A stretch of DNA of 64,000 nt from Octopus sinensis (taxonomy: Eukaryota): NCBI RefSeq assembly GCF_006345805.1, contig NC_042998.1, forward strand, positions 154,876,001 to 154,940,000, read 5' to 3'. Both the position numbers and the translations under genes were made by a program. The notes under the pieces were generated by a model. It was not told where the DNA came from, made no database searches, and saw only the letters and a program-made list of their open reading frames with translations. Of the stretch, positions 7,030 to 39,195 are shown one piece after another (position 1 is the stretch's first letter; the number at the start of each line of letters is the position of its first letter).

Positions 7030-7410
7030 AAATGTAATTTACAAATGCACGGTCCTTAATCTATTACACAACTCTACAGCCATATGCATAGGATCAACCA
7101 AAAATTTTAAGCAACGGTATGCTATTCTTTTAGATATGATAAACATAGTTATTCTACAACACTCGCCAACCACATACATCATCTCAAAAATGCAAATATA
7201 CCCTATACTCTATCATGGTCCATACTGGACTCAGGACTTCCCTACCGAGGTCAACGCTCAACTTGCAAGCTTTGCTTGAAGGAGGCACTCCACATGTTAA
7301 AGCACAACTCTCTAATACTGCTAAATAAACATAACGAGGCACTAAGCACATGCAACCACCGCTTTTATCACACATTCAAATTCTACCACAAATCCAAATG
7401 CCAAAATACA
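7030..7410 (+). mobile_element. Penelope-like element GIY-YIG endonuclease relic
   Basis: NVIYKCTV...ICIGSTKNFKQRY, a frameshift, then SFRYDKHSYSTTLANHIHHLK...WSIL...CKLCLKE...LLNKHNE..STCNH. Confidence 0.85.
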
Positions 7411-7504
7411 GTGCATTTCCACAATACCCCTTAGGTAATCCCAATAACCTTATAAATCTACATTCTATCTTCTAATCCATATCTAGTTCCTCACATGTAC
7501 AACC

Positions 7505-7750: not shown

Positions 7751-8289
7751 ATTTTCTTATATTACTAAGCACTGAACTGCTAATTCTTCAACCCCTCTCT
7801 CTGCCCCTACACTTAGACTCTATCACTATCACTACACATTTGTCATTCCTTTACCTTTTACCACCACCCCTCATTCCTTATTTCTTTTTACACTATAATA
7901 CCTTTCTCTCTCTTTCACCCTTCATTTCCCCACTCCTACTTTCAAATTATCTCCAATGACCACTGACTTATTTATATCTTCATTTTTCTTTTCTCTTTTT
8001 TCTTTATTTCCTTTATCCCTCTCTTCAGGGTTTTATGTTTTTTAATATTTTTTATCATTTTATTACTTTTCTTCTTACTTTCTTCTCCTTCTTATCTCTC
8101 TTTTTTTTCTCTTTCTTCATTCCTCTCTTCCTGTTTTCTGATTTGACCTTACTAATACACTCCCTATTTTTAGGTCACTTTAAATAAAAACCTTTGACTC
8201 TGCAACACTATATAAATTCTGTACTTGGAATGACCAAGTTTAAAAACTGCTGGATCTCACTCATAAGCTATTGGAAACTTACACTGCCT

Positions 8290-8458
8290 ATATTTGCATT
8301 TTTGAGATGATGTATGTGGTTGGCGAGTGTTGTAGATTAACTATGTTTATCATATCTAAAAGAATGGCATACCGTTGCTTAAAATCTTTGGTTGATTCTA
8401 TGCATATGGCTGTAGAGTTGTGTAATAGATTAAGGACCATGCATTTGTAAATTACATT
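8290..8458 (-). repeat. Inverted partial copy of the GIY-YIG segment at 7031-7200
   Basis: Reverse complement matches 7031-7200 with only a few substitutions. Confidence 0.9.
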
Positions 8459-8625
8459 TGGAAGGAACCATTTTAAACTCTGTTGGACTTTACTCATAAG
8501 GTATTGGAATCCTACATATATACCATTCTACCTAAAAAGTGGATCTACAACTTCAATATCCCTACATATCTTGCATCTATTTTCTTTCATCCACCTCACT
8601 CTCTATTTTGTATCACATCTAAACT

Positions 8626-34146: not shown

Positions 34147-35775
34147 CTCTCTCTATATAAAAGGCAGTTTGTCTGTCTGTGTGTCTGTCAGGTTGTACCC
34201 TCACCCTGACCACGGCTTTCAACCGATTGTGATGAAACTTGACACACACATAGCCCAATGTCATAATTCAAAACTAACGCAGCGAAAATTTTGAAAAGTT
34301 CCCCCAGTTCTGAAAAAAATCGATAAATTCGACATGGGGTCGAGAATCTAAGCTTTTCATATGCAACACATTTTCTGTTGTAGTTTTCGAAACTTGCAAT
34401 CAATTTTCACCAAACTCATGGTGATACTTATTGTTACCCTAAGAAACTTAATTCTGATGTTAGTTTTCCATGCAATACCTTACCACCAGAAAAAATCGAT
34501 AAAATCATGCCATTTTGGGAAATCTCGAAATTCAAGATGACATATTTTTGACAATATCTTTAACAAATTGGCAGGAATTTTTTTAAAAATTCACAGCGAG
34601 CATCATGTCTGCTCCAAGGAGCTATATGGCCCTTTTTATTCCAATAGGATACTTTATTACTGTATATTAAACACAAACCACAGACGGTCTAGGGGATGCA
34701 ACTCGACCTTCTTTAACTCTTACTCCCCCAAATAACTATCAAACAGCTATCGATAATTCAACCCACAGGAGGAAATCTAGACTTAATCTTCAAAGTATCC
34801 CACATACAAACCAAATATTACATTGAAACCTTCAGACTAACCTAAGTTTTGGTGAACCAATTCCTACCAGGAAGAACTTACCTCCGAGACTTTACCCCCA
34901 ACACAGCCACTTTAAGCAGTCAACGAGACAAAACATGACCAGACAACATAACCTTGGCATACTTCTGCTAATCGCTGCTGCAGCTGCAAGTTATTTGAAT
35001 ACTTTTTTTTGTTTAAACTTTCTTTATAACTACCACCCCAAACGTTTTACCTTAAATTTTTGACATACCCTAAGGGTCCTCAGACGCTACTTGCAAACTC
35101 TTGGTTTATTATAAGCCGCTTTTATCCACTTCTCAGTTTCCTGTTAAACTCTGCTTCACAATGTCCATCAATAAATCCCAAGGCCAAATGCTACAAGTTG
35201 CTGGGTTACATTTGGGCGAACAGTGCTTTGCCCATGGTCAACTCTACGTGGGCTGTTCAAGCGTTGGGAGGCGCAATGATGTTTTCATGTTTTCGCCCAA
35301 AGGGACAGCTAGGAACGTCGTATACACAGAAGTATTGGAGTGAAGAGAAGACGTTGCAACCTACACATACGCCTTTGTTCCCTAGAGGGAAAGTACTAGA
35401 TCGGGATTAGTCGTTGCCTACTAGAGGCTCCCAAGCCCCCTTTCACTAGACTTAAGTTAGGATTAGGTAGGGCTTAGCTGTGGTCCGAACCCAACTTGGG
35501 TTCGGGGGCAGGGGTGTCAAAAGGGCCAACATGTGCAACCTTATCACCTCTGCCTGTCAAACTCCCAACCCAAACTCAAACTCAACTGGGTTGAGTGTGT
35601 TAAACAAAACCAGAAAATGCATGCAAGGGAACGGTGCTTTGAATGCCTTAATGCCTTTTAGGCTTCATTTTACAAAATAACGGTTCAATGAGTACAAAAA
35701 AGGGTAAAAAGGTAAAGGGCATTGCTTATCGACAAAGTTTCTTACATACCCAGGCAACGCCAGGCTATGCTGCTA

Positions 35776-35776
<1 letters not shown>
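34146..35776 (+). mobile_element. Non-autonomous Helitron with Pif1-like helicase remnant
   Basis: 5' A|TC(TC)TATATAAAAGGCAG plus (GTCT)n; 3' imperfect GC-rich hairpin at 35749-35765 then CTAG|T; QFPVKLCFTMSINKSQGQ...CFAHGQLYVGCS at 35130-35343. Confidence 0.88.
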
Positions 35777-35820
<44 letters not shown>

Positions 35821-35859
35821 TAAAAAATGGAGTTAACGCAGGTTTAAACAAGTATTTTT

Positions 35860-35946
35860 ACTTTCTACATATGTTTCAAAAATTCCACTGATACTTATTC
35901 AAAAGAATAAAAGGTATAAACAATGCAATCTTCTCTTCGGGAAAGT
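35860..35946 (-). ncRNA. Type I hammerhead ribozyme motif (left arm copy)
   Basis: Reverse complement of 37038-37124. Confidence 0.75.
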
Positions 35947-36494
35947 GAAAAAACGAAACTTGTCAATACGACATTTTAGCAAAAAATGATGGATTCGTAT
36001 AGCGATAGACAGAACGCTATTAATATTGTTTAAAAAAACGTTATATGATATAATGTCATAAGTAGCTAACAGAAAGAGTTGGGATATTAATAGTGAATGT
36101 TAAATATAAAGGAAATTAAAGTCTAAACTATATATAATGATAGAGACTACTTATATGCACTAAAAGTATGTTTCTGCCAATGCTTACATCTGTATGCTCG
36201 TTCTATAACCGTGTTTACTAGAGTAATTTTAGAAAAAATAATGAAAAATAGCTCAGAATTGCAGAGAAGACAGAATTTCTTGCCTTTGTCATATGGTATC
36301 GAAATTGAGAGGATCAACCATTCTAAATGAAATTGTTCATTATGGTCTTTTAAATCCCAAATCAGTTTGCTGAGACTGGTACTATTCCGTTTATTTCTAT
36401 CCCTAAATGTTGAGTAATGGATAGAAATTCTCTTAGATAACTCTAACGATGTGCTTCCAATGTAAAATCGTACTTTATTACGAGTACCAGTGTA

Positions 36495-36834
36495 TACACT
36501 GGTATATAAAGTACGATTTTACATTGGAAGCACATCGTTAGAGTTATCTAAGAGAATTTCTATCCATTACTCAACATTTAGGGATAGAAATAAACGGAAT
36601 AGTACCGGTCTCAGCAAACTGATTTGGGATTTAAAAGACCATAATGAACAATTTCATTTAGAATGGTTGATCCTCTCAATTTCGATACCATATGACAAAG
36701 GCAAGAAATTCTGTCTTCTCTGCAATTCTGAGCTATTTTTCATTATTTTTTCTAAAAATACTCTAGTAAACACGGTTATAGAACGAGCATACAGATGTAA
36801 GCATTGGCAGAAACATACTTTTAGTGCATATAAG
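36495..36834 (+). pseudogene. 5'-truncated Penelope-type GIY-YIG endonuclease; mirrored on the minus strand at ~36150-36494
   Basis: FYIGST...KRISIHYSTFR...STGLSKLIWDLK...W.IL...PYD...CLLCNSE...LVN...CKH. Confidence 0.85.
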
Positions 36835-37037
36835 TAGTCTCTATCATTATATATAGTTTAGACTTTAATTTCCTTTATATTTAACATTCACTATTAATAT
36901 CCCTACTCTTTCTGTTAGCTACTTATGACGTTATATCATATAACGTTTTTTTAAACAATATTAATAGCTTTCTGTCTATCGCTATACGAATCCATCATTT
37001 TTTGCTAAAATGTCGTATTGACAAGTTTCGTTTTTTC

Positions 37038-37124
37038 ACTTTCCCGAAGAGAAGATTGCATTGTTTATACCTTTTATTCTTTTGAATAAGTATCAGTAGA
37101 ATTTTTGAAACATATGTAGAAAGT
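37038..37124 (+). ncRNA. Type I hammerhead ribozyme motif with CCGAAGA core and enlarged loop II (right arm copy)
   Basis: ACTTTC-CCGAAGA-GAAGATT[42 nt]AATTTTT-GAAA-CATATG-TA-GAAAGT. Confidence 0.78.
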
Positions 37125-37311
37125 AAAAATACTTGTTTAAACCTGCGTTAACTCCATTTTTTATTCATATCATTCAAATATTCAACGTAAACACGAAGTT
37201 TCAACCTTTATAAACAAGGAGTTACAACATCTTTACTTGTGAGATTTTTGCTGCCCTGGTAACTATTCATTCATTTATCCGTGTTAATTGTTAACAAGGT
37301 AAAATACACTC

Positions 37312-37364
<53 letters not shown>

Positions 37365-39072: not shown

Positions 39073-39189
39073 AAAATGGATGTTAGATGGAGAATATGAT
39101 ATTGATTTATATATATATCTGTGCCTTGTTGTACCATTTATCTACTTCTATATATATATAAATCAACATCATATTCTCCATCTAACATC

Positions 39190-39195
<6 letters not shown>
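39073..39195. repeat. Short inverted repeat (~46 bp arms, ~31 bp spacer) next to (TA)n
   Basis: AAAATGGATGTTAGATGGAGAATATGATATTGATTTAT versus ATAAATCAACATCATATTCTCCATCTAACATCCATTTT. Confidence 0.85.

Follow-up and report, generated by a model that had tools for sequence, protein, structure and literature searches.

A spacerless palindrome in the Octopus sinensis genome is probably a single Penelope-like insertion primed from two sites

Is a transposon palindrome that has no spacer at its centre a mobile unit in its own right, a mistake of genome assembly, or the by-product of an ordinary insertion? The question is raised by a locus in a stretch of 64,000 nucleotides of the Octopus sinensis genome (NC_042998.1, positions 154,876,001 to 154,940,000; hereafter the window, to which all coordinates below refer), in which two nearly identical arms meet head to head, each carrying a hammerhead ribozyme motif and part of a GIY-YIG nuclease gene. 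We favour the third answer, to which we assign a probability of roughly three in four: the locus would be a single 5'-truncated head-to-head insertion of a Penelope-like element (PLE) in a (TA)n microsatellite, primed at two sites separated by 150 nt and probably without activity ever since.

The inverted repeat occupies 35814-36478 and 36506-37170 (665 nt, 99% complementary in the assembly sequence), and an alignment of the arms through the centre places the latter at 36494/36495, inside a perfect 20-bp core (36485-36504) of the head-to-head junction (36471-36515). The left arm (35814-36494, minus strand) is an inverted 5'-truncated copy of the 3' end of the element, corresponding to positions 2715 to about 2030 on the unit of the complete copy L061 that is described below, and it ends at a point that we call site A, the last letters of the left (TA)n target microsatellite (35777-35817) being common to the microsatellite and the element end. 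The right arm (plus strand) consists of a portion common to the left arm (36495-37170) and of a one-sided 150-nt tail (37171-37318) that lies between site A and a second point, site B, where the right (TA)n target microsatellite begins (37319-37360). In tandem copies of the family the tail stretch is located directly upstream of the ORF start. Splice-like signals ahead of the ATG, read from the sequence of L061 and seen in the window as well, predict a 71-nt intron in the 5'-UTR, and the window copy ends within this predicted intron, of which it would retain the 5' part (37299-37318, plus strand). The arms differ by six substitutions and by five extra left-arm letters in two small gaps near the centre. 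The arms, their few substitutions, the one-sided tail and the (TA)n flanks are thus all present in the assembly as a first-pass annotation of the window had claimed, and the palindrome is confirmed at assembly level.

Assemblies from long reads are known to contain long perfect palindromes as artefacts, and fold-back or missed-adapter reads could be suspected here too. Such reads would, however, have mirrored the flank together with the element, whereas the arms stop at two family-wide ends and their flanks differ. Nor is the centre symmetric, as it carries templated switches: read against the native element sequence, the junction runs antisense, sense, antisense and sense, with three strand switches that each show 3-4 nt of microhomology, that together span ~30 nt of the element and that are centred on a native imperfect palindrome. 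At four of the six substituted positions it is the left arm that deviates, at the other two the right arm. Two of the six are CpG transitions, and each is present in 0 or 1 of 34-64 other family segments, so that, as far as the letters tell, they look like decay after insertion. The same architecture also stands at dozens of loci. We therefore regard an artefact as highly improbable, given that the arms seem to have decayed after insertion, that their flanks are distinct and that both ends recur across the family. Among the contigs of two large DNA runs none extends over 36491-36504, a gap that proves nothing, individuals may differ, and the sole contig that crosses the centre in the four runs compared is ordinary family sequence with three other letters and one gap. 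Among the 24 sequencing runs listed, none contains more than 0.61 of 13 sampled words, and no RNA run is recorded as containing them; two contigs of one presumed RNA run match the right arm and are not assignable to the window locus.

Each arm holds one stop-free frame of 123 codons that matches the C-terminus of the family protein and includes the final 108-111 codons of the nuclease domain, which substantiates the C-terminal GIY-YIG fragment first proposed for each arm. The fragment of the right arm (36508-36837, plus strand) corresponds to amino acids (aa) 667-774 of that protein at 98%, followed by the stop, and includes the CxxC and CxH motifs; that of the left arm (36147-36487, minus strand) corresponds to about aa 664-774. 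Neither arm contains a start codon or the first GIY-equivalent motif (aa 656-660), and, judging from these frames, the window copy is unable to encode a reverse transcriptase (RT) or a complete nuclease. The fragment, the full 774-aa ORF and four homologs all went unrecognised by Pfam, so the GIY-YIG label is drawn from published Hydra alignments and from the homologs.

With the right arm as query, the genome of the octopus itself yielded 3261 candidates, and the 40 that were scored all match at 96-100%; in the 30 loci that were fetched the common sequence reaches upstream, over variable lengths, into an RT gene. The autonomous partner that such an arm search had been proposed to find is L061, a whole natural copy composed of an inverted arm, a pseudo-LTR, a 774-aa ORF, a second pseudo-LTR and a tail, in which RT and GIY-YIG are intact, which is about 98% identical to the window copy and whose unit measures 2866 bp. 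Partial tandem copies that form pseudo-LTRs are found at L061, L062, L063, L093 and L105. The L061 protein contains YRDD (aa 353), RIRWL (aa 35) and SDKTG (aa 122) and matches published PLE alignments by eye, and it has 47 homologs at E<=1e-20 that are 25-40% identical, the only named one being from Argonauta. The partner and these family traits uphold the Penelope-like identity that had been proposed, and, as judged from its copies, the source family is young, high-copy and endonuclease-positive.

By motifs and layout the family appears to resemble the Hydra clade most. It has a unit of <3 kb, RW[K/L], DKT, and CxxC and CxH around the catalytic E and N, and its protein lacks CCHH, as in the definition of that clade. 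The CxCX5C linker that precedes the endonuclease in all 10 homologs that reach the region is, on the other hand, absent from the L061 protein, and we therefore file the family as a Hydra-like endonuclease-positive PLE and not as a Hydra member. In the copies that were translated, an Asn-rich stretch stands in place of the cysteine linker at about aa 620-660, and (TA)n targeting persists despite this replacement: in a sample of 30 loci that was not chosen for TA, 28 site-B ends enter TA-type repeats and the other two continue as tandem copies. Naiad membership was considered and rejected, as Naiads bear their nuclease at the N-terminus.

The two ends of the window copy are family-wide. Site A (37170 in right-arm coordinates, the stop of the left arm) and site B (37318, the stop of the right arm) each share 3-4 letters with (TA)n, and exact (TA)n junctions number 275 at site A and 217 at site B genome-wide (reversed controls, 0). 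We sampled 92 of 100 listed site-A junctions (of the 275) and removed three local duplicates, which left 89 A-anchored loci: 57 simple inverted insertions that end at B, 17 lone A arms, nine complex loci, five inverted insertions whose far end is rearranged or lies out of view, and one unclassified. An inverted 3' copy, cited in the first-pass annotation as a known habit of PLEs, is the arrangement of 57/89 loci as a simple A+B pair. A sense partner is in view at 72 A-anchored loci, where it ends at B in 63, is a short piece near A in one, and is cut off or otherwise placed in the remaining eight. No RT part is in view at 71 of the 89.

Sampling from the other end, we took 39 site-B junctions in listing order and, separately, L170, which was picked as a suspected B+B pair; this B-anchored sample is biased against A partners because loci that had already been sampled were skipped. 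An adjoining partner ends at A in 21 of the 39 and at B in none; five more have a partner that ends near A, that reaches A after a break or that is fragmentary, two belong to complex or tandem arrangements, and the other 11 have no partner. B+B pairs are rare (L023 and L170). Inverted insertions, in short, nearly always pair A with B. L170 itself (G000:C9:690000-694300) is an inverted B+B pair whose 1.68-kb arms have identical inner ends and are separated by a spacer of 595 nt, and may be a local inverted duplication.

These counts bear on a second explanation of the inverted arm, in which a B-primed cDNA, or an antisense template, snapped back at the native palindrome, copied itself and joined the target at A. 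Fold-back of this kind has been published for rotifer Penelope copies (Arkhipova 2013, PMC3846280), and much at the window agrees with it: a native imperfect palindrome underlies the centre, the arms share one haplotype (see below), the symmetric junctions of L036, L060 and L121 likewise overlap native self-complementary stretches, and the symmetric cases, that of the window included, fit self-priming about as well as they fit priming from two sites. Fold-back is nevertheless unable to yield the 17/89 lone A arms or the pairs that do not overlap, which make up 27 of the 57 simple A+B pairs, and a folded copy would need a coincidental stop at exactly site A. The lone arms and the non-overlapping pairs argue instead that site A is an independent priming start, and we consider fold-back unlikely as the origin of the window copy. 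A pile-up of B arms at site A was also looked for, and only 4/57 fall within 2700-2730, so simple blocking on one RNA is unsupported.

The window junction occurs once in the 2.7 Gb genome. Palindromes of the same form are nonetheless more frequent than expected: the inner ends lie <=10 nt apart in nine of the 57 simple pairs as against 2.1 expected (p about 1e-4, 20,000 shuffles), and within 10 nt in 4/21 of the B-anchored set as against 0.8 expected (p 0.003), where the symmetry excess at 30 nt is not significant (4 vs. 2.3, p 0.15). These near-spacerless palindromes recur, each with its own centre, and a second RT-less palindrome is found at L003, where arms of about 930 bp meet at a different templated junction. 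The 680-bp stem of the window exceeds those of all 30 overlapping pairs of the A-anchored sample (maximum 638). RT-less palindromic copies had been predicted to recur elsewhere, and they do, at A- and B-anchored loci and at L003, so the idea of a recurring form does not fall for want of further palindromes. Because the centres differ and the window junction is unique, we conclude that the spacerless form is a recurrent integration product and not a spreading unit.

Subfamily letters tell the same arms apart from other insertions. The window arms are identical at 20/20 variable sites, and in 31 overlapping pairs the arms differ at 12/248 polymorphic sites, as against 1940/4253 between insertions; at the level of these sites, both arms are shown to derive from a shared source haplotype. 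In three pairs (L072, L120 and L123) the arms differ at linked subfamily sites, which suggests that two templates, or later conversion, are sometimes involved. Local unrelated palindromes of 120-1370 bp flank L009, L013, L017, L022 and L027, and the one that flanks L009 contains RT sequence of the window family.

The right arm carries a type I hammerhead motif (37038-37124, plus strand) with a C at position 4 and a 3-bp stem III, and the left arm carries its mirror as given by the arm alignment (35860-35946, minus strand). Read from the sequence, with its pairs checked, the right-arm motif comprises a six-pair stem I, CCGAAGA, a 56-nt stem II and GAAACA-UA-UGUA, and cleavage is predicted after 37118 (after GUA). 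Automated recognition was negative, with no hammerhead among the 26 Rfam matches but only hairpin families below threshold, and a pattern scan that allowed just 40 nt for stem II missed a hammerhead whose stem II measures 56 nt. Folding is no better than that of shuffles (z -0.65), and constraining it to the hammerhead costs 1.7 kcal/mol relative to the minimum. In 76-117 segments of the family there is almost no variation in the core letters; variants that are common occur at position 4 (C 61, T 21) and N7 (A 66, G 20), and further ones at the closing base of stem II (C 78, T 28), in loop 3 and at H17 (A 64, C 51), positions at which a hammerhead tolerates change. As the common variants fall at tolerated positions, the hammerhead identity is supported, and the motif claimed for each arm stands on its core layout and on this variation, with cleavage as a prediction. 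Subfamilies differ at hammerhead positions 4, 11.1 and 17 (37045, 37106 and 37118 in the window), and the lineage of the window has the less canonical letter at all three.

Activity at the window copy is another matter. In either direction of transcription the antisense copy would come first, so the sense ribozyme is likely masked in a window transcript, as its geometry implies. Minimal PLE hammerheads are moreover thought to require a tandem partner (Cervera and de la Pena 2014, PMC4209133), and self-cleavage here is therefore unlikely. Opposite-strand hammerheads 100-700 bp apart have already been described in the same work.

The first-pass annotation had gone further and suggested that the palindrome may be a retrozyme-like unit, non-autonomous and mobilised in trans, whose hairpin could feed ADAR editing or siRNA production. 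On this reading the unit would itself be transcribed and moved, or maintained because it supplies dsRNA. A hammerhead motif in each arm, an autonomous partner in L061 and the 71/89 A-anchored loci without an RT part in view are what such a unit would lead one to expect, and siRNA has been obtained from inverted Penelope copies in transgenic flies (PMC3681739), which gives the siRNA idea a precedent. The singleness of the window junction in the genome, however, largely refutes mobility as a unit, and the differing centres, the lack of tandem hammerhead units and the ordinary private decay of the arms speak against it as well. What survives of mobilisation in trans is that the parts would be made in trans by the autonomous partner; movement of the palindrome as such does not survive, and the retrozyme-like mobile unit has to be given up on the strength of its unique junction, differing centres and missing tandem units. 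The read-through hairpin fared likewise in part: if transcribed, the locus is predicted to fold as a 670-bp hairpin at -1115 kcal/mol, but the host gene that was to transcribe it was not found, 83 of the 140 window ORFs of at least 75 aa having been scanned with only transposon-type domains and no recognised host exon, a scan that short exons and long introns escape. Hairpin RNA from the window copy would need read-through from outside. The pre-ORF stretch, the expected site of a promoter, appears only on the right arm, from where it would face outward. We give the whole proposal, as a mobile unit or as a maintained dsRNA source, very little credence.

Other repeats lie nearby. Immediately to the left of the palindrome is a Helitron-like 3' end (35074-35776), in which a short hairpin and a CTAG precede the (TA)n target; a frame in it, which we take to be a helicase-like C-terminus from its resemblance to Helitron, gave no Pfam match. 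An older, diverged GIY-YIG fragment (7030-7431 and 8289-8459; 33% to the family protein, E 1e-4) has a 171-bp inverted duplicate about 1.1 kb away, and a 119-bp hairpin (39075-39193) beside SINE-like repeats gave below-threshold microRNA matches.

We reasoned that priming from two sites, for which the statistics of the ends argue, could have proceeded as follows. An enzyme of the element would cut both strands of the (TA)n target, and one cDNA would start at A and its counterpart at B on unspliced RNA, each primed by one of the cut ends with help from the 3-4-nt match to (TA)n. Both cDNAs would halt near the same point, at a shared template end or at a pause on the native imperfect palindrome, and templated repair guided by microhomology would join their 3' ends without a spacer; the arms would afterwards have diverged by six substitutions. 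The B+B pairs, the mismatches of L072, L120 and L123 and the lack of a B-arm pile-up at A count against a two-ended model. The family offers hundreds of copies that are nearly identical and whose two ends lie far apart and can be counted, so that two-site priming is testable in vivo. A broader version, in which one complex primes the strands at A and B nearly always and leaves about a sixth of the simple inverted insertions as spacerless palindromes, finds (TA)n by RNA-target microhomology after loss of the linker zinc finger credited with that task, and yields hairpins that silence the family, is one that we advance tentatively and would not bet on. If it were true, dozens of scattered hairpins would be a dsRNA source silencing the family. 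The missing linker makes the window family a test of the idea that the CxCX5C motif targets (TA)n. Taken by itself, the window locus is unremarkable transposon debris whose architecture has been described before, and it is likely a dead side product of the copying process.

How the window copy compares with known systems depends on which of its parts is considered. Inverted 5'-truncated copies with one-sided tails of 30-40 bp are typical of PLEs (Craig et al. 2021, PMC8557442), and junction palindromes have been described with fold-back self-priming as the proposed cause (Arkhipova et al. 2013, PMC3846280). The window copy resembles such inverted-pLTR insertions, as presented in the latter paper and in Fig. 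2 of the former, in its head-to-head 5'-truncated arms, its junction palindrome and its one-sided extension, but its tail measures 150 nt and not 30-40 bp, its 680-bp arms reach into the ORF, and no full ORF is attached. In Craig et al. (2021, PMC8557442), how tandem and inverted PLE structures form and how microsatellites are found are posed as open questions. We found no published description of the A+B pairing rule, of the 150-nt tail or of linker-less Hydra-like (TA)n targeting in a search for which subscription articles, older Penelope literature and supplements lay mostly outside the scope.

What defines non-LTR retrozymes is a tandem arrangement of units that each contain a type I hammerhead (preprint 10.64898/2026.07.22.740005), and they share with the window copy the lack of RT and a type I hammerhead derived from a PLE terminal repeat. 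The window copy differs from them in having two inverted units only, in that its unit is unrepeated, in its nuclease-coding sequence and in the placement of its ribozymes on opposite strands. The Hydra clade, which includes Hydra-1_Obim of Octopus bimaculoides and Penelope-13_HM (Craig et al. 2021, PMC8557442), agrees with the window family in a length of <3 kb, a single ORF, a C-terminal GIY-YIG, a hammerhead after the ORF and insertion in (TA)n, and the window hammerhead has the same layout as the published Hydra hammerheads; the annotation of Penelope-13_HM includes an inverted copy that is 5'-truncated, and one hammerhead per strand (PMC8557442). The window family departs from the clade in lacking the CxCX5C linker, in a 56-nt stem II and in often having C at position 4. 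Hydra-1_Obim, compared by eye, has kept the linker and differs from the window family in sequence.

The closest biochemical counterpart of the two starts is PAc, the protein of Poseidon from the green anole, which in vitro cuts both strands, extends each of them and starts synthesis at two RNA sites that delimit the tail, with the ribozyme dispensable for insertion (Frangieh 2024, PMC11167929). PAc and the window family have in common two preferred start sites that set the tail, the use of both target strands and AT-rich targets. In the window family, however, the sites lie 150 nt apart and upstream of the ORF, and A is paired with B within one insertion, whereas PAc showed no strand difference in its start site; and PAc primes without target homology (PMC11167929), whereas both sites of the window family match (TA)n by 3-4 nt.
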